In this document: positions 8,561 to 43,680 of the stretch, in pieces | Numbering within the stretch: the stretch's first letter is position 1 | Layout: each line of letters opens with the position of its first letter | Source: Escherichia coli | GTDB lineage: Bacteria; Pseudomonadota; Gammaproteobacteria; Enterobacterales; Enterobacteriaceae | NCBI RefSeq assembly: GCF_030013595.1 | Contig: NZ_CP122768.1 | Length of the DNA stretch: 64,000 bases | Direction: 5' to 3' (one strand) | Made by a program: the position numbers and the translations under genes | Notes under the pieces: model-generated | What the model was told of the DNA's origin: nothing | Seen by the model: only the letters and a program-made list of their open reading frames with translations | The model's database searches: none

Positions 8561-8789
8561 TCCTCTGATTTACAAAACACGCTAATTCGTCTTCCATAAA
8601 CCATGACGATTAAGATTTATACATAATGCGCTACATTGAGGAATTCCCTGAATGTGACGCAAATCACTTCAAAGAGTGAGCAACAGTCAGTATCATCATG
8701 TGAGTTAAACCCTCGCCGCCTGACGGTGAGGGTTTTCTTTTGGGTATGTTTATCTGCGACACTCGCAGTACCGACGACATGGAGTAAAA

Positions 8790-12404: not shown

Positions 12405-12775
12405 CTATACTTCCTCCGTGTTTTCGATGAGATGTAAGGTAACCAATTTTTGCCGATTCGGCTAATGCGTTTCCATTATCAAATCGATAAGTTTTACCTT
12501 ACAACCTTCGTAAGACAACTTTGTGAACTTTGCACCGCCAGCGGCGATAAAAAGTAAAATGGCCCCCTTTCCAGGTGACCGTGTAATCTGAACTACCCTT
12601 TGGTATCTTCAGCGCCTGCCTGCAGGCTGAGGTGTTGCCCTTACAAATGCAACAACGACATGGATTACAACACCCTCATAAACAAAGGGCAATCACCTGA
12701 TCTAAGCTCTTACCTATGACAGTGATAGGTTATGCCTTTTACCCGACTTTTGCACTGACTGAAAAGGACAAATTA

Positions 12776-28864: not shown

Positions 28865-28890
28865 GATAACGATAATTAATTTCATTATCA
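28865..28890. promoter_or_regulatory. Fur box in the divergent entS / fepD promoter region
   Basis: gataacgataattaatttcattatca. Confidence 0.7.
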
Positions 28891-31707: not shown

Positions 31708-32837
31708 ACTAAGTGCTCTTCCACCACGGCATCCTGTTTTCTGGATGCCATCGCATGGCGCAACAGCACGCCACCACAAGCCACCATCCCGCCGATCATC
31801 GCAGAAAGGATCACAATAATCGCCTTACCCGGACCGTCTTTTTTCACTGGCAATGACGGGCTTAACTGATATTTAAACGGCGTAAAATTCACATCGTTGA
31901 TATTTGCTTTTGTTAGCTGCTCAACAAGATACTGACGATTACGTAATTCACCGTTCAGTTCCGCAACGTCAGTAACCGCTTTTTCAATTTCCAGTTTGCG
32001 TTCAATACCGTCTGCGCCGAGAGAAATAGAGAAATCGGGGTCATCTTTAACGGCCTGACCATTACTGTAAACGGGCTTTTTAATTCCTGCCGCGTTAGCA
32101 ATGTCGAGTGAATAATTGAGGCGCTGAATGTTTGCATCAAGTTGATTTTTCGTTTTAATGCGGTCCTGAGCCAGTTTTTCTTTTTCAAACTGGGTTTTGA
32201 TCTCCAGTTTATTACGGACGTTTTCTATCGACTCTTTCACCACCAACGCAGAGATATAATCGATATACCCGCTCAAAACGGTCTGCGCCTCTTCACTGGT
32301 TGGCGCGGTAAAACTTAGCGTCCAGGAGGTATACAGTGACGGTTCATCTTTTTTCTTACTGGCATTGTCATCAACCGCTTTCATTTTTTCGCTCAATGCG
32401 ACAATTGCGCGATGCAAATCCAGTTCGTCGATTTTCGCCTCTTTTAATTGGTCCATCACATAAGGTGTTGAGCGCAGGTACTCTTCCAGCAAGCTAACTG
32501 ACTGAAACTTCTTGATAAACAGGTTAAATGCTTCTGTACGATCAATTTTGATATCCAGATCCAGCACACGAAGCTTAGTGAATGTTTTCTCAAGCGCCTG
32601 CCACTGAACAGGTTCTGGAGGCGTGACAACCGCCGCGCTGGTCCATTTTTGCGGCAGGATGAAAGAGATCAGTAAACCTGCGCAGGCAAACGCAAAAACG
32701 ACCGCCATGACCGTTTTTTTGGCCCGCCATAAAACTTCAATTAGATTAAGTAAATCAATTTCATTATTACTGGGCGACGCCAGAGGATACTCGGGAAAAT
32801 GAGCGTCACTTCCCTGTTTAATATTCAGTGATGACAT
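31704..32837 (-). CDS. fepE: Polysaccharide co-polymerase-like protein FepE
   Basis: 377-aa ORF MSSLNIKQGSDAHFPEYPLASPSNNEIDLLNLIEVLWRAKK... Confidence 0.85.
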   Translation of the reverse strand: MSSLNIKQGSDAHFPEYPLASPSNNEIDLLNLIEVLWRAKKTVMAVVFAFACAGLLISFILPQKWTSAAVVTPPEPVQWQALEKTFTKLRVLDLDIKIDRTEAFNLFIKKFQSVSLLEEYLRSTPYVMDQLKEAKIDELDLHRAIVALSEKMKAVDDNASKKKDEPSLYTSWTLSFTAPTSEEAQTVLSGYIDYISALVVKESIENVRNKLEIKTQFEKEKLAQDRIKTKNQLDANIQRLNYSLDIANAAGIKKPVYSNGQAVKDDPDFSISLGADGIERKLEIEKAVTDVAELNGELRNRQYLVEQLTKANINDVNFTPFKYQLSPSLPVKKDGPGKAIIVILSAMIGGMVACGGVLLRHAMASRKQDAVVEEHLV

Positions 32838-33052
32838 GGGGTATAACCTGAAAATGAGTCCAATAGGGGGAAATCTCCACGGCGCTCACTTTACCAGTTG
32901 GTGAGAATTATCCGAAGCTGAAGTTTGTAAATTCCTTCCACTGAATGCAACATTCACTCTATTTAAGAGAAATATCCACCAAACTTATAAATTAAATAAA
33001 TGATAAACCCATAATTATTTCCTGTAATTATGGGTTTATCGATAATATTAAT

Positions 33053-36000
33053 TTACCTGTTTAGCGTAGCGCGAATAATCGGCCCAATTTTTTCAAACGC
33101 CCCTGGAGAGATAATATCCACATGCGCACAATCCTGACGATAGATATCCAGCTCCGCAATCCACGGCGACCAGGCGCGTTCGGGACTCATACCTTGCTGA
33201 AGCGTGCGTTCAGCAACAAACAGCGTCGCTTTACCGTCAAACGGTACGCTATGAGCAGTCGTCAGCAGGCGCACAGCATCAGCGTAGTTGCCTTCAATGG
33301 TGGTAAACAACTCCGTTGAAGTACTTCCCTGCTGTGCCGCCAGGAAGGCCTCGCGCTCGCGGTTAATCTCCGCCAGCACTTCCGGATCCAGACCATTAGC
33401 TTCTTTTTCCTGCCAGTTTTGCGTTTCTGGCGGCCAGGTATCCAGCAAGCCAAGAAATGCCACCTGTTCGCCACGGGCACGCAGTCGCGCCGCAATGCCC
33501 TGCGCCAGCGTACCGCCAAGTGAATAACCCAGCAGGTAATATGGGCCGTGCGGTTGTTGTTCAAGTAACGTTGCCAGATGCGCTTCGCAGACTTCATCCA
33601 GATTTGCCGCCGTCTGCATGGGGCCACTGGGGCGCGGCGACTGAATGCCGATAATCGACCATTGTGGATCGAGATAACGCGAGAGCACGCTGAACTGCCA
33701 GGCAAAACCGGAGGCCGGATGGAAACAAAACAGCGTCGGGCCATTACCTTCACGCAACGGCAGAATGGTTTCGAATCCCATGCGCCGGGAGCTGTCTTCT
33801 TCCCCATCAATAATCGTTGCCAGTTTAGCGACGGTTGACGCAACCATCACCTGCCCCGGCGTCACCTGACGGGCAAACTGCCGACTTAACTGCGCTGCCA
33901 GTTTCATTGCCAGTAGTGAATGACCGCCAAGCGCGAAGAAATCAGCATCGGCATCCTGCACGTCACAACCCAGCAACGACGAGAATGCCGCGGCGATAAT
34001 CGTTTCACTGCCCGCTTTCGGCGTACGCCCCGGTGCTTGTGCCTTCAGTTCAGGCAACGGTAAGGCTTTGCGATCCAGCTTGCCGTTGGCGCTAAGCGGC
34101 AACTGCGGAAGTTGCAGCAGAACCACGGGCACCATATGCGGTGGCAATGTTTCGCGCAACTGCGCCTGCAATGCAGTGGTATCCAGCGGCAGGCCTGATT
34201 GCGACACCAGATACCCAACCAACTGACGCGCATCGCCTCCCGTTGCGGCAGCCTGGTTAATGACGCAGGCGTGGGTCACGGCCTGTTCAACGTCCGGCAG
34301 CGCCTGCATCACGCGATCGATTTCGCCCAGTTCGATACGCTGCCCGCGAATTTTTAGCTGATCGTCACTGCGCCCGAGGTACTCCACCGCGCCGTTATCC
34401 AGCCAGCGGGCAACGTCTCCGGTACGGTACATCCGTTCACCAGGGGCAAAAGGATCGGCAATAAAGCGACTGGCGGTCAGATCGGGTCGTCCAAGATACC
34501 CCTGCGCCAGTTGAATACCGGTGAGATAGAGATCACCTGCCACACCCGGCGGCACCGGATGCATCATCGCATCAAGAATACGCAGGCCCGTATTCCACAC
34601 CGGATAACCAATCGGCACACTGCTGCCGCGCACCTGTGCCAGTTCCTCGCCAAAAGCCGGATACCAGCTGACATCTACCGCCGCTTCCGTCGGGCCATAT
34701 AGATTATGCAACGGCACGCTGGTTAACTGTTGCCATTCGCGGCATAAATCAGCGGGTAAGGCCTCACCACTACAGAAAACCTGTTTCAACGTCGCGCAAT
34801 TCTGACGAGCGGTTTGCGGAGTCAGCGGTGCAACAAATGCCGCCAGCATCGACGGCACAAAGTGCGTGGTCGTTACGCCATATTCGGCAAAGAATTGCTG
34901 CATAGCGAGCGGGTCGCGGTGCGCTTCCGGTTCAGCCATCACCAGTTTAGCCCCGGCAATAAACGGCCAGAAAAACTCCCACACCGAGACATCAAAACTG
35001 CACGGCGTTTTTTGGGCAACGATATCATCGCCTGTAAGCGGGTAGTGGTTTTGCATCCAAAGCAAGCGGTTAACGATAGCCGTCTGCCCGACCATTACCC
35101 CTTTTGGTCTGCCGGTGGAACCGGAGGTAAAGATGATATAAGCCGTGTGGTGCGGTTGTGAAAGTTGCAGCGGCGCACTGCCCTGCGGTGTAAGCGGGGC
35201 GTTATAGCAAAGGCTGGTTAAATCTGGAACATCGGCAAAGCGCGGCAGTTGATCGTCGGTGGTGATTAACAGCGACGGACGCGCATCTTCCAGCATCATT
35301 TTCAGGCGATCGTCCGGATAGCCGGTATCCAGCGGTAACCAGGCCGCACCTGTTTCAACAATCGCATGTAGTGCCAGAGTCAAAAAGACCGAGCGCGGTA
35401 GCGCCACCGCCACGCTGTCGCCTGGTTTAACGCCGCGCTCACGCAGCAGATTCGCCAGCGCCACCACCTGCTCGCGCATTTCCCGATAGCTGAACAGATA
35501 ACGCGCATCTGCCAGCGCCGGAGCATCCGGTGTTTTTGCCGCTTGTTCTGCCACCAGCGCGCTCAGCGTGGTTTCTGGAATCTCAACCTGAGTGGCGTTG
35601 ATCTGCGCCAGCTGCACATATTCACCTGGCAGCATAATATCGACATCGCCGCACAACAGCGCCGGATCCGCGGCGAACTGGGCAATCAGCATTTTCAGGC
35701 GTTCAGCATGTTGAATTAACGTTGGCTCATCGTAACGCTGTTTATTGGCGAGGATCTCAATACTCAAATCACCGTGTTCATCCGGGAACAGGGCCAGTTC
35801 AAGGTCATTAACCGGACCGGTTGCCAGGGTATGGGTTTGCGTCTGAACACCAGGAATATCCAGTTGGTAATCAAATACCTTGATATTGAGTACCGGACCG
35901 AACAGCGGTTCCTCTCCTGCCGCTCGCCCGCTGTCACGGACAATTTGTTCGGCATCGTAACGTTGATGGCGGCGCATTTTTTTCAGTTGTGCTGCCAGTC

Positions 36001-36934
36001 GGGTTGCCAGTTCAGGCAGCGTTTCTTGCTCCGCAATATGAATACCCAGCGGCAAAACGTTGAGCACGGGTCCGGTAGCCGTCAGCGCCGCCGAGCCCAG
36101 TCGACGCATAAAGATAAATCCGGCGGCGTAGTCCATGCGATTGCACAATCGCCCCAGCCATAAGGCCGTCAGCGCAAGGGCTAAATCGGTACGCTGCACA
36201 CCTGAAAGTTGCGTAGCCAGCTGGCGGAATTCCCCGTCGGTAAATTCCAGTTTCAGGCGCAAAATATCTGCCGAAGCGCTGCGCCCCGGTAAAGGTGCCG
36301 GAGAAAGTGACGCGGGCGGCGGCAGTTGACGACGCTGTTCCGCCCAGAATGCCGCATCACGCTGCCAGGCTTCGCTTTCGCGGTATTGCTGGTACTCCTC
36401 CACTACATCAGCGAAAGGCGTAAACGGCGAAGCAGGCGTTGGTTCGCCACGCAGCCATGCGCAGTAAATATTGGCGATCTGGCGAGTAATGGCCGGGAAA
36501 CTGAAGCCATCGACCAGCAAATGGTGATAACGCTGATACCAGTACCAGCGGTTATCCGCCACCTGATTGAGCTGATGAAAGACCAGCGGTTTGCCGCTGT
36601 CGGCACGTAGATTTTGCTGTAAATCCGCCTGCATTAATGCCTGCGCAGTACCGTGCGGATCAATGTTGGTTCGCAGGTCGATAATTTCTGGTAGTTCAAA
36701 CGTCAGCGCATCATCGACCCATTGCCAGACTTCGCCGTTATCTTCCGTAAAACGCATCCGCAGCGTATCTGCTTGCGCTAATCCGGCAACCACCGCGCGG
36801 GCCAGTAATGGCGCATCAACCTCTCCGGTTAACTCAACGTAATGCGCCACGCTCCAGGCGGAGGGTAAATCCGACAGTTTTTCTGCCATCCAGATGCCGG
36901 GCTGTGCGGCGACCAATGGTAAATGCTGGCTCAT
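33053..36934 (-). CDS. entF: Enterobactin synthase component F (NRPS: C-A-PCP-TE, serine-activating)
   Basis: ORF 33053-37072; start at MSQHLPLVAAQPGIWMAEK... gives 1293 aa; adenylation (FTSGSTGRPKG), PCP (GGHSLLAMK) and thioesterase (GYSLGG) motifs. Confidence 0.9.
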   Translation of the reverse strand: MSQHLPLVAAQPGIWMAEKLSDLPSAWSVAHYVELTGEVDAPLLARAVVAGLAQADTLRMRFTEDNGEVWQWVDDALTFELPEIIDLRTNIDPHGTAQALMQADLQQNLRADSGKPLVFHQLNQVADNRWYWYQRYHHLLVDGFSFPAITRQIANIYCAWLRGEPTPASPFTPFADVVEEYQQYRESEAWQRDAAFWAEQRRQLPPPASLSPAPLPGRSASADILRLKLEFTDGEFRQLATQLSGVQRTDLALALTALWLGRLCNRMDYAAGFIFMRRLGSAALTATGPVLNVLPLGIHIAEQETLPELATRLAAQLKKMRRHQRYDAEQIVRDSGRAAGEEPLFGPVLNIKVFDYQLDIPGVQTQTHTLATGPVNDLELALFPDEHGDLSIEILANKQRYDEPTLIQHAERLKMLIAQFAADPALLCGDVDIMLPGEYVQLAQINATQVEIPETTLSALVAEQAAKTPDAPALADARYLFSYREMREQVVALANLLRERGVKPGDSVAVALPRSVFLTLALHAIVETGAAWLPLDTGYPDDRLKMMLEDARPSLLITTDDQLPRFADVPDLTSLCYNAPLTPQGSAPLQLSQPHHTAYIIFTSGSTGRPKGVMVGQTAIVNRLLWMQNHYPLTGDDIVAQKTPCSFDVSVWEFFWPFIAGAKLVMAEPEAHRDPLAMQQFFAEYGVTTTHFVPSMLAAFVAPLTPQTARQNCATLKQVFCSGEALPADLCREWQQLTSVPLHNLYGPTEAAVDVSWYPAFGEELAQVRGSSVPIGYPVWNTGLRILDAMMHPVPPGVAGDLYLTGIQLAQGYLGRPDLTASRFIADPFAPGERMYRTGDVARWLDNGAVEYLGRSDDQLKIRGQRIELGEIDRVMQALPDVEQAVTHACVINQAAATGGDARQLVGYLVSQSGLPLDTTALQAQLRETLPPHMVPVVLLQLPQLPLSANGKLDRKALPLPELKAQAPGRTPKAGSETIIAAAFSSLLGCDVQDADADFFALGGHSLLAMKLAAQLSRQFARQVTPGQVMVASTVAKLATIIDGEEDSSRRMGFETILPLREGNGPTLFCFHPASGFAWQFSVLSRYLDPQWSIIGIQSPRPSGPMQTAANLDEVCEAHLATLLEQQPHGPYYLLGYSLGGTLAQGIAARLRARGEQVAFLGLLDTWPPETQNWQEKEANGLDPEVLAEINREREAFLAAQQGSTSTELFTTIEGNYADAVRLLTTAHSVPFDGKATLFVAERTLQQGMSPERAWSPWIAELDIYRQDCAHVDIISPGAFEKIGPIIRATLNR

Positions 36935-37149
36935 TGCGCCTCCTGCAACTGGGTGAAATTCGACGGTGTCAGAGTACGCCAGTGGGCTTCCAGCCACTGC
37001 TGGCAGGACGCCTGTGACTGCGGCTGACACACAACGTCCCAGCCTGCCGGTAAGGCGCATTGTTGCGGCCACAGACTGAATTGCCCCTGCGCATTGCGCA
37101 AAATGTAAAACGCTCCCTGCGGATCATCGAAGGGATTACTGAATGCCAT
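36931..37149 (-). CDS. ybdZ: MbtH-like protein
   Basis: ORF 36931-37155; start at MAFSNPFDDPQGAFYILRN... gives 72 aa with conserved Trp residues; overlaps the entF start. Confidence 0.85.
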   Translation of the reverse strand: MAFSNPFDDPQGAFYILRNAQGQFSLWPQQCALPAGWDVVCQPQSQASCQQWLEAHWRTLTPSNFTQLQEAQ

Positions 37150-37151
37150 AT

Positions 37152-38354
37152 TCAACTCCTGTCATGGAAAAGTGGTTGCCAGAGGTCGATTAGCCCCTGC
37201 ATCAAGCCACCGCGCCAACAAAGCGCATCATGTCCGCCGTCAACCTGACGCCAGAAAATGGATTCTTTTATAGGGTGTAATTGCGCATACAGCGCCTGAT
37301 TGGCCCGCATGATCATCGGCTCGCGAATACCCGCTTCCAGCACAATGCGCAGACCTTCGGCGCTAACTTCACCAGTTTTTAGCTGTTCAAGTAACACGCC
37401 CTCTTGCTGCCCGCCCCGATGCGGCCACCAGTATGATCCTGACTGGCTTAATACACAGCCAAAGCGTTCAGGCCAGTTTAGTCCGGCATACAGCGCGGAA
37501 AGCCCACCAAAACTCTGCCCGGCGACCACGGTGCGATCGGCGCGATCGCTAAAAGGGGCAATAGCTTTCACCAGGGGTAATAACTCTTGCTGTACTGCCA
37601 GCCAGAAATCCGCATTACACGGCAGTTCGTAAGCGCGGTGCGTGGTGTCGATAGCGTCGATCAACACATACACGGCGGGAGGAAGTTGCCGACGATGGGT
37701 CAACGAAGTCAGCACAGGCCAGACGGGCATACTCTGCGCCCAAAATTCACCATCAAGCAAAACTGCCAGCGGGCGTTCTTCTGCTGTTGCATCGCCGGTG
37801 GTAAAAATCCATACACGGCGTGAATTTTTCAACCGTTCACTTTTCCAGATAATTTCTTTGGCAGGCGTTTCTGGCGCTTGCGGACAATCCCATCCCGGTT
37901 GCAGAGGCGCTTGCGGCATTTCGAGTGCAGAAACAGCGTGCCCTCGCCCGCCTTTCCAGCTTTGTGGATTCAGCGGATCGGCTATCGCCTGGGGTAATAG
38001 TTTTCGCCAGCCTTCACGTAATTCGAGGCGATCGGGGGATGGTGCAGAAAAAATGTCATCGCGTTCGGTGGGAATAAAGCAGTAGCTGCCGCGCCAGTTG
38101 GCATTGAGCTGTGTCGTCCACTGCCAGACGTTGGTGCCTGCAATTCGCTGCATCGACTGGGGCTGGCTGTTCTGATGGTGATCGGTCACACCAGTGATGT
38201 AGACCCATACGCGCTTTATCGTCGAGTATTCTTCAGAACCTTGGGGATCACGCCACCAGAAAGTAACCTCAAACATTTCGTCATTCAGACGCTGCCATTC
38301 CGGGCCATGTTTCGACTGCCACCAGCTCTCACTTCCTACTTTTAACGCCGTCAC
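37152..38354 (-). CDS. fes: Enterochelin (ferric enterobactin) esterase
   Basis: 400-aa ORF MTALKVGSESWWQSKHGPEWQRL... with esterase GQSFGG motif. Confidence 0.9.
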   Translation of the reverse strand: MTALKVGSESWWQSKHGPEWQRLNDEMFEVTFWWRDPQGSEEYSTIKRVWVYITGVTDHHQNSQPQSMQRIAGTNVWQWTTQLNANWRGSYCFIPTERDDIFSAPSPDRLELREGWRKLLPQAIADPLNPQSWKGGRGHAVSALEMPQAPLQPGWDCPQAPETPAKEIIWKSERLKNSRRVWIFTTGDATAEERPLAVLLDGEFWAQSMPVWPVLTSLTHRRQLPPAVYVLIDAIDTTHRAYELPCNADFWLAVQQELLPLVKAIAPFSDRADRTVVAGQSFGGLSALYAGLNWPERFGCVLSQSGSYWWPHRGGQQEGVLLEQLKTGEVSAEGLRIVLEAGIREPMIMRANQALYAQLHPIKESIFWRQVDGGHDALCWRGGLMQGLIDLWQPLFHDRS

Positions 38355-38406
38355 ACCATAACCCCATGTTTACTGTGCAATTTTTCATTGATTGCAGAAA
38401 TATATT

Positions 38407-38440
38407 GATAATATTATTGATAACTATTTGCATTTGCAAT
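38407..38440. promoter_or_regulatory. Fur box(es) in the divergent fes / fepA promoter region
   Basis: gataatattattgataactatttgcatttgc. Confidence 0.7.
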
Positions 38441-38596
38441 AGCGTAATGGCGCGCCGTGGGAAGCGCGGACATTAATTAACCAACTGCACTGAGTGTCTT
38501 TCAGGATCAAAGGTTTTCGCGGTAGCGGGATGCGTCGTGTTGATGACGACCATGCCCGACAGTTGCAATTCGTGGCAAAAATGCAGGAATAAAACA

Positions 38597-40837
38597 ATGA
38601 ACAAGAAGATTCATTCCCTGGCCTTGTTGGTCAATCTGGGGATTTATGGGGTAGCACAGGCACAAGAGCCAACCGATACTCCTGTTTCACATGACGATAC
38701 CATTGTCGTTACCGCCGCCGAGCAGAACTTGCAGGCGCCTGGCGTTTCGACCATCACCGCAGATGAAATCCGCAAAAACCCGGTTGCCCGCGATGTGTCG
38801 GAGATCATCCGTACCATGCCAGGCGTTAACCTGATCGGTAACTCCACCAGTGGTCAGCGTGGGAATAACCGACAGATTGATATTCGCGGCATGGGTCCGG
38901 AAAACACGCTGATTTTGATTGACGGCAAGCCGGTAAGCAGCCGTAACTCGGTGCGTCAGGGCTGGCGTGGCGAGCGCGATACCCGTGGTGATACCTCCTG
39001 GGTGCCACCTGAAATGATTGAACGTATTGAAGTTCTGCGTGGTCCGGCGGCTGCGCGTTATGGCAACGGCGCGGCGGGCGGCGTGGTTAACATCATTACC
39101 AAAAAAGGCAGTGGTGAGTGGCACGGCTCCTGGGACGCATATTTCAATGCGCCAGAACATAAAGAGGAAGGTGCCACCAAACGCACTAACTTTAGCCTCA
39201 CCGGTCCGCTGGGCGACGAATTCAGCTTTCGCTTGTATGGCAACCTCGACAAAACTCAGGCTGACGCGTGGGATATCAACCAGGGCCATCAGTCCGCGCG
39301 TGCCGGAACCTATGCCACGACGTTACCAGCCGGGCGCGAAGGGGTGATCAATAAAGATATTAACGGCGTGGTGCGCTGGGACTTCGCACCATTGCAATCG
39401 CTGGAACTGGAAGCGGGTTACAGCCGCCAGGGTAACCTGTATGCGGGCGATACCCAGAACACCAACTCTGACGCTTACACTCGCTCGAAATATGGCGATG
39501 AAACCAACCGTCTGTATCGCCAGAACTACTCGCTGACATGGAACGGCGGCTGGGATAACGGCGTGACCACCAGCAACTGGGTGCAGTACGAACATACCCG
39601 TAACTCGCGTATTCCGGAAGGTCTGGCGGGCGGCACAGAAGGGAAATTTAACGAAAAAGCGACACAGGATTTCGTCGATATCGATCTCGATGACGTGATG
39701 CTGCACAGCGAAGTTAACCTGCCGATTGATTTCCTCGTTAACCAGACGCTGACGCTGGGTACGGAGTGGAATCAGCAGCGGATGAAGGACTTGAGTTCCA
39801 ACACCCAGGCGCTCACCGGGACGAATACCGGCGGCGCTATTGATGGCGTGAGTGCGACAGACCGTAGCCCATATTCAAAAGCAGAAATTTTCTCGCTGTT
39901 TGCCGAAAACAATATGGAGCTGACTGACAGCACCATCGTAACGCCGGGGCTGCGTTTCGATCATCACAGCATTGTTGGCAATAACTGGAGTCCGGCTCTA
40001 AACATATCGCAAGGTTTAGGCGATGACTTCACGCTGAAAATGGGCATTGCCCGTGCTTATAAAGCGCCGAGTCTGTACCAGACTAACCCAAACTACATTC
40101 TCTACAGTAAAGGTCAGGGCTGCTATGCCAGCGCGGGCGGCTGCTATCTGCAAGGTAATGATGACCTGAAAGCGGAAACCAGCATCAACAAAGAGATTGG
40201 TCTGGAGTTCAAACGCGACGGCTGGCTGGCGGGCGTCACCTGGTTCCGTAACGATTATCGCAATAAGATTGAAGCGGGCTATGTGGCTGTAGGGCAAAAC
40301 GCAGTCGGCACCGATCTCTATCAGTGGGATAACGTACCGAAAGCGGTGGTTGAAGGTCTGGAAGGATCGTTAAACGTACCGGTTAGCGAAACGGTGATGT
40401 GGACCAATAACATCACTTATATGCTGAAGAGTGAAAACAAAACCACGGGCGACCGTTTGTCGATCATCCCGGAGTATACGTTGAACTCAACGCTGAGCTG
40501 GCAGGCACGGGAAGATTTGTCGATGCAAACGACCTTCACCTGGTACGGCAAGCAGCAGCCGAAGAAGTACAACTATAAAGGTCAGCCAGCGGTTGGACCG
40601 GAAACCAAAGAAATCAGCCCGTACAGCATTGTTGGCCTGAGCGCGACCTGGGATGTAACGAAGAATGTCAGTCTGACCGGCGGCGTGGACAACCTGTTCG
40701 ACAAACGTTTGTGGCGTGCGGGTAATGCCCAGACCACAGGCGATCTGGCAGGAGCCAACTATATCGCCGGTGCCGGGGCATATACCTATAACGAGCCGGG
40801 ACGTACGTGGTATATGAGCATTAATACTCACTTCTGA
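38597..40837 (+). CDS. fepA: TonB-dependent ferric enterobactin outer membrane receptor
   Basis: ORF 38537-40837; start at MNKKIHSLALLVNLGIYGVAQA gives 746 aa; TonB box DTIVVTA; C-terminal aromatic residue. Confidence 0.9.
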   Translation: MNKKIHSLALLVNLGIYGVAQAQEPTDTPVSHDDTIVVTAAEQNLQAPGVSTITADEIRKNPVARDVSEIIRTMPGVNLIGNSTSGQRGNNRQIDIRGMGPENTLILIDGKPVSSRNSVRQGWRGERDTRGDTSWVPPEMIERIEVLRGPAAARYGNGAAGGVVNIITKKGSGEWHGSWDAYFNAPEHKEEGATKRTNFSLTGPLGDEFSFRLYGNLDKTQADAWDINQGHQSARAGTYATTLPAGREGVINKDINGVVRWDFAPLQSLELEAGYSRQGNLYAGDTQNTNSDAYTRSKYGDETNRLYRQNYSLTWNGGWDNGVTTSNWVQYEHTRNSRIPEGLAGGTEGKFNEKATQDFVDIDLDDVMLHSEVNLPIDFLVNQTLTLGTEWNQQRMKDLSSNTQALTGTNTGGAIDGVSATDRSPYSKAEIFSLFAENNMELTDSTIVTPGLRFDHHSIVGNNWSPALNISQGLGDDFTLKMGIARAYKAPSLYQTNPNYILYSKGQGCYASAGGCYLQGNDDLKAETSINKEIGLEFKRDGWLAGVTWFRNDYRNKIEAGYVAVGQNAVGTDLYQWDNVPKAVVEGLEGSLNVPVSETVMWTNNITYMLKSENKTTGDRLSIIPEYTLNSTLSWQAREDLSMQTTFTWYGKQQPKKYNYKGQPAVGPETKEISPYSIVGLSATWDVTKNVSLTGGVDNLFDKRLWRAGNAQTTGDLAGANYIAGAGAYTYNEPGRTWYMSINTHF

Positions 40838-40875: not shown

Positions 40876-40975
40876 TGCCGGATGCGGCGTGAACGCCTTA
40901 TCCGGCCTACAAAAATCTTGCCAATTCAATATATTGCAGGACCACGTAGGCCTGATAAGCGTAGCGCATCAGGCA
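40876..40975. repeat. REP / BIME-like palindromic units between fepA and entD
   Basis: gccggatgcggcgtgaacgccttatccggcctac, then an inverted partner gtaggcctgataagcgtagcgcatcaggc. Confidence 0.7.
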
Positions 40976-41632: not shown

Positions 41633-41742
41633 TTGACAACATCTGGTACGATTCGCCCGCAGCCATTGCTGACCGCGGGCGAAAGTGTAAAACAGGTGCC
41701 TTACCACCCTGACCTGACAACCGGATATGCGGGGATTACTCC

Positions 41743-43080
41743 CATAAGCGCTAACTTAAGGGTTGTGGTATTACGCCTGATATGATTTAACGTGCCGATG
41801 AATTACTCTCACGATAACTGGTCAGCAATTCTGGCCCATATTGGTAAGCCCGAAGAACTGGATACTTCGGCACGTAATGCCGGGGCTCTAACCCGCCGCC
41901 GCGAAATTCGTGATGCTGCAACTCTGCTACGTCTGGGGCTGGCTTACGGCCCCGGGGGGATGTCATTACGTGAAGTCACTGCATGGGCTCAGCTCCATGA
42001 CGTTGCAACATTATCTGACGTGGCTCTCCTGAAGCGGCTGCGGAATGCCGCCGACTGGTTTGGCATACTTGCCGCACAAACACTTGCTGTACGCGCCGCA
42101 GTTACGGGTTGTACAAGCGGAAAGAGATTGCGTCTTGTCGATGGAACAGCAATCAGTGCGCCCGGGGGCGGCAGCGCTGAATGGCGACTACATATGGGAT
42201 ATGATCCTCATACCTGTCAGTTCACTGATTTTGAGCTAACCGACAGCAGAGACGCTGAACGGCTGGACCGATTTGCGCAAACGGCAGACGAGATACGCAT
42301 TGCTGACCGGGGATTCGGTTCGCGTCCCGAATGTATCCGCTCACTTGCTTTTGGAGAAGCTGATTATATCGTCCGGGTTCACTGGCGAGGATTGCGCTGG
42401 TTAACTGCAGAAGGAATGCGCTTTGACATGATGGGTTTTCTGCGCGGGCTGGATTGCGGTAAGAACGGTGAAACCACTGTAATGATAGGCAATTCAGGTA
42501 ATAAAAAAGCCGGAGCTCCCTTTCCGGCACGTCTCATTGCCGTATCACTTCCTCCCGAAAAAGCATTAATCAGTAAAACCCGACTGCTCAGCGAGAATCG
42601 TCGAAAAGGACGAGTAGTTCAGGCGGAAACGCTGGAAGCAGCGGGCCATGTGCTATTGCTAACATCATTACCGGAAGATGAATATTCAGCAGAGCAAGTG
42701 GCTGATTGTTACCGTCTGCGATGGCAAATTGAACTGGCTTTTAAGCGGCTCAAAAGTTTGCTGCACCTGGATGCTTTGCGTGCAAAGGAACCTGAACTCG
42801 CGAAAGCGTGGATATTTGCTAATCTACTCGCCGCATTTTTAATTGACGACATAATCCAGCCATCGCTGGATTTCCCCCCAGAAGTGCCGGATCCGAAAAG
42901 AAGAACTAACTCGTTGTGGAGAATAACAAAAATGGTCATCTGGAGCTTACAGGTGGCCATTCGTGGGACAGTATCCCTGACAGCCTACAAAACGCAATTG
43001 AAGAACGCGAGGCATCGTCTTAACGAGGCACCGAGGCGTCGCATTCTTCAGATGGTTCAACCCTTAAGTTAGCGCTTATG
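41743..43080 (+). mobile_element. IS186 insertion sequence (IS4 family), complete, 1338 bp
   Basis: 23-bp terminal inverted repeats cataagcgctaacttaagggttg (41743-41765) and caacccttaagttagcgcttatg (43058-43080); identical 10-bp direct repeats ggattactcc at 41733-41742 and 43081-43090. Confidence 0.9.
41960..43072 (+). CDS. insL: IS186 transposase (DDE)
   Basis: ORF 41792-43072; start placed at MSLREVTAWAQL... to give the ~370 aa I recall for InsL; start uncertain. Confidence 0.75.
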   Translation: MSLREVTAWAQLHDVATLSDVALLKRLRNAADWFGILAAQTLAVRAAVTGCTSGKRLRLVDGTAISAPGGGSAEWRLHMGYDPHTCQFTDFELTDSRDAERLDRFAQTADEIRIADRGFGSRPECIRSLAFGEADYIVRVHWRGLRWLTAEGMRFDMMGFLRGLDCGKNGETTVMIGNSGNKKAGAPFPARLIAVSLPPEKALISKTRLLSENRRKGRVVQAETLEAAGHVLLLTSLPEDEYSAEQVADCYRLRWQIELAFKRLKSLLHLDALRAKEPELAKAWIFANLLAAFLIDDIIQPSLDFPPEVPDPKRRTNSLWRITKMVIWSLQVAIRGTVSLTAYKTQLKNARHRLNEAPRRRILQMVQPLS

Positions 43081-43101
43081 GGATTACTCCCCGCACAACG
43101 G

Positions 43102-43254
43102 CTACTTCTTCGGTTCGTAAGCGAGAACAGCCTTAAACTCAATATTACGTTCCTTCACCGTAAACTCACACAGCGAGTCTCCGACCAGAAGCGTAAATCC
43201 CAGTACCGTCAAACACAGCACTATGACTGCCACAAGGGCATATTTCGTCAGCAT
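43102..43254 (-). CDS. hokE: Hok-family small toxic membrane peptide (type I toxin)
   Basis: Minus-strand 50-codon [53 protein letters not shown], typical Hok; stop codon lies 21 bp from the IS186 target duplication. Confidence 0.85.
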
Positions 43255-43680
43255 GTTTATATTGCCTCCATGCGAAGAAGGGACTACCATCCAAATTGTC
43301 TGGTTTGGAGTGGCAGCCCCAGGGTTGATAGAAATATCTCCTGGGGCTTCATCTTTCCAGACCTCAGAGTAAACCTGAAACCGGAAAGCTTCAGGCACCC
43401 GCCGTTATCTTACCCTTCCTCAGCAAAATAGCTGTTTATTTATACAGTGAGTCCTGTTTCGGACTTCTCACTCCTCATTTGATCAACTGAAGCTGAACCC
43501 GTTTTTTTCTGCATGCCTCAATCGTCAAAATTCTTCGCCACCAGCCAGCTCTGCCATAACTTGTCACATTGCAGAAGTAGCCAAACTTCTTCAGTCACAA
43601 TCAGTTCACCATCACCAAAAAAAGAAACATTCCAGAACTTCCGCATCTCGCCCAGTCGCTCCCACTTCTATACTGAATAG

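Follow-up and report, generated by a model that had tools for sequence, protein, structure and literature searches.

The MbtH-like gene ybdZ and its tight junctions with fes and entF in an Escherichia coli enterobactin locus

Genes and features of the locus

The enterobactin genes fes, ybdZ and entF follow each other on the minus strand of the Escherichia coli DNA analysed here, a stretch of 64,000 nucleotides termed “the window”, as judged from the ORF coordinates (Table 1). Window positions 25001-50000 are collinear with the annotated ent/fep cluster of CB209, to which they are 97.9% identical. This collinearity and the equivalog assignments of Fes and EntF place the three genes in an ent/fep cluster, where their neighbours are fepA, entD, fepE, fepCGD, entS, fepB and entCEBAH.

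Table 1. Coordinates of genes and sequence features around ybdZ in the window
Feature	Position	Strand	Basis
fes, enterochelin (ferric enterobactin) esterase, 400 aa	37152..38354	-	ORF; stop TGA 37154-37152; NF007758; Pfam Enterochelin_N and Esterase; RefSeq gene of the same length
Shine-Dalgarno sequence of ybdZ, AGGAG	37156..37160	-	Within the final fes codons GAC AGG AGT TGA; ATG 6 nt downstream
Spacer AT, 2 nt, between fes stop TGA and ybdZ ATG	37150..37151	-	Sequence; RefSeq coordinates agree
ybdZ, MbtH-like protein, 72 aa	36931..37149	-	ATG 37149-37147; stop TGA 36933-36931; PF03621; PDB 5JA1_B; RefSeq ybdZ
Shine-Dalgarno sequence of entF, AGGAGG	36939..36944	-	In the codons CAG GAG GCG CAA, which encode part of the variable C-terminal tail of YbdZ; entF ATG 4 nt downstream
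ATGA overlap of entF ATG (36934-36932) and ybdZ TGA (36933-36931)	36931..36934	-	Sequence; RefSeq annotations
entF, enterobactin NRPS (C-A-PCP-TE), 1293 aa	33053..36934	-	NF007605; Pfam Condensation, AMP-binding, PP-binding and Thioesterase; PDB 5JA1_A over full length
Fur-box-like array of GATAAT-type hexamers, divergent fes/fepA promoter region	38401..38437	unassigned	Weak consensus matches, 6-7 mismatches to the 19-mer

An earlier note, made from the sequence alone, had named the flanking genes fes and entF and called the small gene between them MbtH-like, proposing a profile search as the check and a failed assignment as the refutation. The search bore out all three identities. YbdZ scores 77.1 bits with Pfam PF03621 (MbtH), for which the gathering score is 27 bits (E = 6.8e-22); residues 4-54 cover profile positions 2-52 of 53. 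Fes and EntF match the NCBIfam equivalogs NF007758 (705.5 bits, cut-off 222) and NF007605 (2800.5 bits, cut-off 2400), respectively. YbdZ is furthermore identical in 69 of 72 residues to chain B of PDB 5JA1, the protein co-crystallised with EntF, and its RefSeq product name is “enterobactin biosynthesis protein YbdZ”. A search of the NCBIfam profiles matched YbdZ to 0 families, which reflects the content of that library, since Pfam and PDB identify the protein.

With 72 codons, ybdZ has the size of the stand-alone small proteins of the MbtH family (about 70 residues), and it adjoins the adenylation-domain gene entF, whose start it overlaps; the same adjacency is found in 39 other species. The protein carries the motifs S25-L-W27-P28 (SxWP) and P34-A-G36-W37 (PxGW), each of which supplies one of the two tryptophans in contact with the adenylation domain. 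All 41 orthologues have W27, P28, P34, G36 and W37, residues that also align with MbtH homologues whose structures have been solved. At the C-terminus, where the MbtH family often has WTDxRP, YbdZ reads W57-R-T-L-T-P62. WTDxRP is frequent in the family rather than a requirement for membership, and the deviation is no argument against an MbtH assignment, because the same one has been described for the experimentally validated YbdZ (PMC7593251). Beyond P62 the orthologues, which are 67-73 aa long, vary in both sequence and length. The gene between fes and entF is ybdZ of E. coli, and nothing counts against this identity.

Earlier work has already established the gene, its membership in the MbtH family, the partnership with EntF, for which crystal structures exist, and the location within a Fur-regulated operon, and annotations of thousands of E. 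coli genomes give an identical layout. As a discovery the locus therefore offers little; the modest added value of the present analysis lies in a correction of the fes/ybdZ junction, which is not an overlap, and in a comparison of the junctions across the Enterobacteriaceae.

The two junctions of ybdZ and their conservation

The earlier note had proposed that the start of ybdZ overlaps the fes stop region and that its stop overlaps the start of entF. The second half of this claim holds: ybdZ ends and entF begins within one ATGA at 36934-36931, a 4-nt overlap. The first half does not, since the fes/ybdZ junction reads TGA-AT-ATG, with a 2-nt spacer in place of an overlap, and only the Shine-Dalgarno (SD) sequence of ybdZ is contained in fes. 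The RefSeq annotations of HCP5S3_I2, K-12 MG1655 and CB209 all show this 2-nt gap and 4-nt overlap.

An overlap with fes would arise only if ybdZ began at TTG 37155, which would yield a 74-aa product and a start fused to the fes stop as TTGA. The ORF listing does reach back to this codon (36931..37155), and TTG-A does overlap the fes TGA. Yet TTG 37155 abuts AGGAG directly, leaving zero spacing for an SD, and beyond Escherichia and Citrobacter other codons, TCT, TTT and TGT among them, take its place, whereas all 41 aligned loci have the ATG that lies 6 nt further downstream. In these loci the upstream GGAG is likewise invariant, at a spacing of 5-6 nt. Moreover, RefSeq places the start at the ATG, and the residues encoded from there, MAFSNPFD, are where the matches to Pfam and PDB start. 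We consider initiation at TTG very improbable and have rejected it in favour of the ATG.

In analogy to NRPSs with a fused MbtH domain, YbdZ could in principle be joined to EntF at the other junction if ribosomes made a programmed -1 frameshift close to the stop codon of ybdZ. Such fused proteins exist, PDB 4GR4 and 6N8E being among the matches; the reading frame of entF is indeed -1 with respect to that of ybdZ, and in the window it stays open for 46 codons upstream of the ATG (ORF 33053..37072). This openness, however, is not conserved, its extent varying by genus between 9 and 100 codons, and in several genera ybdZ and entF are separated by 9-10 nt with in-frame stop codons. Inspection of the ybdZ/entF junction revealed no slippery heptamer, and YbdZ and EntF form separate chains in the crystal structure (PMC10510592). 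Lacking a slippery site and a conserved open frame, the fusion is scarcely credible and was dropped; we retain two separate genes that share ATGA.

Within E. coli the arrangement is close to universal. The ybdZ region is present in 5412 of 5426 complete genomes, and a 30-mer spanning the fes/ybdZ junction occurs exactly in 5402 of the 5426. For the 30-mer at the ATGA junction, the version of the window is found exactly in 250 genomes and the K-12 variant, which carries a synonymous GCA for GCG, in 5036, together 5286 of the 5426. The near-universal occurrence of these junction sequences indicates that the arrangement is no chance feature of the window.

The earlier note had also suggested that the conservation of the overlaps be checked across enterobactin clusters, and here the outcome was divided: order and close packing recur in all 39 other Enterobacteriaceae species-level loci, but the ATGA overlap in only 23. 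Among the remaining loci, seven have an 8-nt overlap, one a 1-nt spacer and eight a TAAGGAG-type spacer of 9-10 nt, the 10-nt form occurring in Kosakonia and Phytobacter, such that the ybdZ/entF distance among genera is -8, -4, +1, +9 or +10 nt. The fes/ybdZ spacer measures 2-30 nt overall and 10-30 nt outside Escherichia. No junction lies outside the range of -8 to +30 nt. Ahead of entF, nearly all of the 41 loci have an SD-like, G-rich motif, in a few of them degenerate (e.g., AGGTG or AGGAC). As read from these alignments, close packing and gene order are conserved, along with an SD-like motif ahead of ybdZ and of entF, and the exact overlap is not, a result that tempers any claim that the ATGA overlap is itself functional.

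The tight fes-ybdZ-entF arrangement is ordinary within the ent/fep cluster. In the CB209 annotation, the pairs fepD-fepG and fepG-fepC each overlap by 4 nt, entA-entB overlaps by 1 nt, and entH and entA are separated by a 2-nt gap.

Expression of the operon and the role of YbdZ

A consensus scan of positions 32800-38700, a weak form of evidence, found no promoter-like or terminator-like site at 36900-37200. The operon fes-ybdZ-entF-fepE is listed under Fur and CRP regulation (PMC4145685, Table 2). Compared with the 19-mer Fur consensus, the fes/fepA intergenic region offers at best a weak array of GATAAT-type hexamers with 6-7 mismatches, and the idea of a strong Fur box immediately before fes was accordingly discarded. 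With the operon and its regulation by Fur taken from PMC4145685, the array presumably marks the iron-regulated start of the fes-ybdZ-entF(-fepE) transcript. Elsewhere in the window, a single site matches the Fur 19-mer with no more than three mismatches. It lies at 28871-28889, around the predicted start of fepD and just past the start of entS, and is probably the divergent control region of these two genes.

PMC7593251, which summarises biochemical and genetic data, describes YbdZ as needed for enterobactin, as raising the solubility and activity of EntF and as acting at a 1:1 stoichiometry. For the YbdZ of K-12/BL21, 96% identical to the protein of the window, 1:1 binding to the EntF adenylation domain is established, as is the need for YbdZ in efficient serine activation. 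Structures of EntF-YbdZ are described in PMC10510592. The statement of the earlier note that MbtH-like proteins activate NRPS adenylation domains agrees with what both papers report for this pair.

Taken together, we regard it as highly likely that ybdZ is the second gene of an iron-repressed fes-ybdZ-entF-fepE operon and encodes a 72-aa MbtH-like helper of EntF, tightly packed between its neighbours; the binding, the requirement for enterobactin, the operon and the control by Fur are drawn from the literature. Like its K-12/BL21 counterpart, YbdZ would bind the adenylation domain of EntF one-to-one and thereby support serine activation and enterobactin production. fes, ybdZ and entF have almost no intergenic DNA between them and would be co-transcribed, and this packing would ensure that the helper YbdZ is co-expressed with the synthetase EntF. 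Some of the ribosomes that terminate on ybdZ probably re-initiate on entF. Independent initiation is equally possible, because ybdZ and entF each possess a strong SD of their own.

Translational coupling of fes, ybdZ and entF is plausible, as suggested by the proximity of the genes on the same strand, with a near-zero distance at both junctions (the 2-nt spacer and the 4-nt ATGA overlap). Pettis and McIntosh reportedly described coupled expression of fes and entF in 1987. In the window, the predicted anti-SD duplexes amount to -6.9 kcal/mol for ybdZ and -10.3 kcal/mol for entF. In silico folding of 160-nt pieces, which is not decisive, gave mean unpaired probabilities at positions -14..+5 of 0.51 for ybdZ and 0.41 for entF, close to the averages of 0.41 and 0.44 over the whole pieces. 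The predicted folding thus gave no clear signal that mRNA structure masks either start, a common though not obligatory mechanism of coupling.

Alternatively, the overlaps may be a neutral by-product of operon compaction: the ybdZ stop would float in an unconstrained C-terminal tail, initiation would occur independently at the SD of each gene, and ATGA would have no coupling function. We take this to be a serious contender, whose chances fall somewhat short of even. It is in keeping with the variation of both junctions among the 39 species, where nearly every locus retains an SD-like motif, and with the variable length and sequence of YbdZ after P62. The strong anti-SD pairing, the lack of a predicted sequestering structure and the comparable overlaps at fepD-fepG and fepG-fepC point the same way. 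It is harder to reconcile with a ybdZ/entF junction that is kept within -8 to +10 nt in all 39 species and is overlapping or at most 1 nt apart in 31 of them, a distance generally efficient for termination-reinitiation. The order of helper, then synthetase, is moreover invariant, and a 1:1 complex (PMC7593251) would gain from matched synthesis.

Going further than co-expression, the near-zero junction and the order of helper and synthetase might serve co-translational assembly, with YbdZ being released where translation of EntF starts and binding and chaperoning the nascent adenylation domain. This idea is compatible with the sequence data and, in our estimation, unlikely. If it were true, the tight junction, and not the exact overlap, would be selected, as a means to enforce a local 1:1 supply. 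The reading that we favour is the more general one, that of a tightly packed operon in which YbdZ is made together with EntF.

Comparison with known systems

The closest relative is YbdZ of E. coli K-12 (b4511; PDB 5JA1 with EntF), which is the same gene in the same position, also with 72 aa, 69 of them identical, and with an identical geometry of the fes and entF junctions. Compared with the YbdZ of PDB 5JA1, the protein of the window has three conservative substitutions, V32A, I39V and T63S, and compared with K-12 the gene carries a synonymous change of GCA to GCG just before ATGA. Judged by these sequence differences, a functional difference between the two proteins would not be expected.

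At the level of the family, YbdZ matches M. tuberculosis MbtH (2KHR), P. aeruginosa PA2412 (2PST), TioT and the MLP domain of SlgN1 (4GR4). Common to YbdZ and the MbtH family are the length of about 70 aa, an N-terminal NPFD, an interface tryptophan in each of the motifs SxWP and PxGW, and an adjacent gene for an NRPS adenylation domain. The C-terminal WTDxRP of the family sets it apart from YbdZ, which has WRTLTP.

With regard to the junctions, ATGA-type stop/start overlaps are classic sites of translational coupling in trpE-trpD and trpB-trpA. Like cistrons of this type, fes, ybdZ and entF lie on the same strand, with no intervening promoter or terminator signal and with stop and start within 0-4 nt of each other. 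Unlike in the coupled trp cistrons, a strong SD belongs to ybdZ and to entF each, and the overlap varies among genera; coupling at this locus would be a likeness suggested by gene arrangement.

Junctions between fes, ybdZ and entF

The genes fes, ybdZ and entF are adjacent, and all three are read from the minus strand (reverse complement). The ybdZ stop codon and the entF start codon share an ATGA tetranucleotide, a 4-nt overlap that agrees with the earlier note. The fes/ybdZ overlap claimed in the same note does not exist: stop and start codon are 2 nt apart, and only the ybdZ Shine-Dalgarno (SD) sequence lies inside fes. RefSeq annotation gives the same 2-nt gap and 4-nt overlap in three strains, HCP5S3_I2 (100% identical to the window across 701 nt), K-12 MG1655 and CB209.

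Features of the fes-ybdZ-entF region and its surroundings (window coordinates, except for K-12 MG1655)
Feature	Position	Strand	Remarks
ybdZ SD, AGGAG	37160-37156	-	within final fes codons
fes 3' end, stop TGA	37154-37152	-	reads ...TTC CAT GAC AGG AGT TGA
fes/ybdZ spacer, AT	37151-37150	-	2 nt
ybdZ start, ATG	37149-37147	-	reads ATG GCA TTC AGT AAT CCC
ybdZ stop, TGA	36933-36931	-	72 codons; ends ...CAG GAG GCG CAA TGA
entF start, ATG	36934-36932	-	reads ATG AGC CAG CAT TTA CCA...
Fur-box-like array, GATAAT-type	38401-38437		divergent fes/fepA promoter region; weak match to 19-mer consensus
Best Fur-box match	28871-28889		around predicted fepD start, just past entS start
AT-rich hairpin, long	33002-33040	-	16 pairs, T-rich tail; directly after entF stop, between entF and fepE
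IS186, complete copy	41740-43083		between entD and hokE/sokE locus
sok antitoxin RNA	43246-43400	-	Rfam RF01794, 83.7 bits; adjoins IS186 copy
ES036 (CssrF) sRNA	40912-40953	+	Rfam, 42.2 bits (gathering score 37.6); fepA-entD intergenic region
rnk leader	8636-8744	+	Rfam, 124.9 bits; ordinary for region
STnc70 sRNA	12549-12642	-	Rfam, 44.1 bits; ordinary for region
K-12 MG1655 RefSeq genes	fes 612737-613939; ybdZ 613942-614160; entF 614157-618038

ORF calling places fes, ybdZ and entF at 37152..38354, 36931..37155 and 33053..37072, the latter two being mechanical extensions to upstream TTG and GTG codons. A ybdZ start at TTG 37155, which would create a TTGA overlap with fes, was rejected: the codon adjoins the SD sequence with zero spacing, non-start codons take its place outside Escherichia and Citrobacter, and the ATG is invariant in 41 of 41 aligned loci. 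Counting back from the ATG, the entF frame has no stop for 46 codons and spans most of ybdZ in a different frame (33053-37072, minus strand). Because this open stretch is not conserved among genera (9 to 100 codons in genera other than that of the window), it is probably due to chance. A YbdZ-EntF fusion by frameshifting was likewise discarded, in view of this variation, the lack of a slippery site and the stop-containing spacer of several genera.

Of 5426 complete E. coli genomes, 5412 contain the 701-nt region at an identity of at least 95%, and 5402 have an exact copy of the 30-mer across the fes/ybdZ junction. For the window's 30-mer across the ATGA junction the figure is only 250: the majority of strains have a synonymous GCA where the window has GCG, two codons before the ybdZ stop, and this variant, with ATGA unchanged, is exact in 5036 genomes. 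The CB209 annotation shows comparable junctions elsewhere in the cluster, with 4-nt overlaps at fepD-fepG and fepG-fepC, a 1-nt overlap at entA-entB and a 2-nt gap at entH-entA; the packing of fes-ybdZ-entF is not unusual for the ent/fep cluster.

Conservation across enterobactin clusters

Scanning one genome per species yielded 41 loci with close YbdZ relatives, nearly all from Enterobacteriaceae. Pieces of 600 nt from 39 usable loci were aligned with the window and locus L001, and distances were scripted. The gene order is constant. Between fes and ybdZ, the five further Escherichia loci have a 2-nt spacer and the 34 loci of other genera one of 10-30 nt, and an invariant GGAG precedes the ybdZ ATG by 5-6 nt (41 aligned loci). 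At the ybdZ/entF junction, 23 of the 39 loci have the 4-nt ATGA overlap, seven an 8-nt overlap of the ATGAnTGA or ATGACTAA type, one a 1-nt spacer and eight a 9-10-nt spacer. In this last class an SD sequence directly follows the ybdZ stop (mostly TAAGGAG; TGAGGAA in one), and nearly all loci bear an SD-like G-rich motif ahead of the entF start, degenerate in a few (AGGTG, AGGAC). Of the overlaps proposed earlier, the conserved part across clusters is the tight packing; the exact ATGA is not conserved, and fes and ybdZ overlap in none of the loci.

In the alignment of 41 proteins (67-73 aa), the invariant core comprises P6, F7, D8, G12, F14, L26, W27, P28, C31, P34, G36, W37, C49, W52, L53 and P62. 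Since the tail past P62 varies in sequence and length, the ybdZ stop floats in an unconstrained stretch that also provides the entF ribosome-binding site, which explains why the overlap class shifts between genera and the junction still stays tight.

Two loci carry doubtful labels. A 223-nt scaffold (L007, 1-223) assigned to Lactobacillus johnsonii ATCC 33200 codes for a YbdZ with 94% identity and probably represents E. coli DNA contaminating the assembly. The contig labelled Chryseobacterium sp. 18061 (L027) is nearly identical in the aligned region to that of Citrobacter sp. 18056 (L028), a sign of possible mislabelling or of a mixed culture.

Transcription and translational coupling

The operon fes-ybdZ-entF-fepE is listed under Fur and CRP control (PMC4145685). 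Together with the Fur-box-like array at the divergent fes/fepA promoter and a consensus scan finding no promoter-like or terminator-like site in 36900-37200, this makes co-transcription and co-expression of fes, ybdZ and entF secure. The hairpin behind entF could attenuate read-through into fepE, though the listed operon includes fepE. The best Fur-box match, the sole one in the window with at most 3 mismatches to the 19-mer consensus (0 expected by chance), probably belongs to the entS/fepD divergent control region because of its position relative to both starts.

Proximity makes translational coupling of the three genes plausible, especially from ybdZ to entF, where a ribosome terminating on ybdZ would sit on the entF start. 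Against coupling, both downstream cistrons carry strong SD sequences of their own (predicted anti-SD duplexes: ybdZ -6.9, entF -10.3 kcal/mol), folding predicts no clear masking of the ybdZ and entF start regions by mRNA structure, and the exact ybdZ/entF overlap is not kept between genera. We consider the case for functional coupling about evenly balanced. Pettis and McIntosh reportedly described coupled fes/entF expression in 1987.

YbdZ among MbtH-like proteins

The gene is, with essential certainty, ybdZ itself, in identity and role. Its product matches Pfam MbtH (PF03621; E = 6.8e-22, 77.1 bits, gathering score 27), confirming the family proposed before, and is identical at 69 of 72 positions to PDB 5JA1 chain B ("Enterobactin biosynthesis protein YbdZ"); remoter PDB matches include MbtH, PA2412 and further MbtH-like proteins with solved structures. 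The lack of a model matching YbdZ in the NCBIfam search is a matter of library content only. A spurious ORF is ruled out by the Pfam and PDB matches and by conservation. The fes and entF products score above the cut-offs of their NCBIfam equivalog models (enterochelin esterase, 705.5 bits against 222; EntF, 2800.5 against 2400), and the match of EntF to 5JA1 chain A is full-length.

Over a 25-kb stretch the sequence is collinear with the annotated strain CB209, at 97.9% identity; the wider window is an ordinary E. coli ent/fep region. Its IS186 copy, present in CB209 and missing from HCP5S3_I2, shares 99.9% identity with K-12 IS186B, compared with only about 96.3-96.9% between the flanks and K-12; it occupies the K-12 insertion site in reversed orientation. 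The sok match corresponds to the type I toxin-antitoxin locus sokE/hokE.

Enterobactin production requires YbdZ, which makes EntF more soluble and catalytically more active, and proteins of the MbtH-like type act in 1:1 stoichiometry with adenylation domains (PMC7593251); EntF was crystallised with YbdZ on its adenylation domain (5JA1; PMC10510592). Nothing is new about ybdZ, its family or its role, and the small additions are the corrected fes/ybdZ junction and tight packing, rather than overlap, as the conserved trait. HMM match, size, core motifs and genomic association make YbdZ a member of the MbtH-like family; its C-terminus reads WRTLTP instead of the family motif WTDxRP, a departure already described (PMC7593251).
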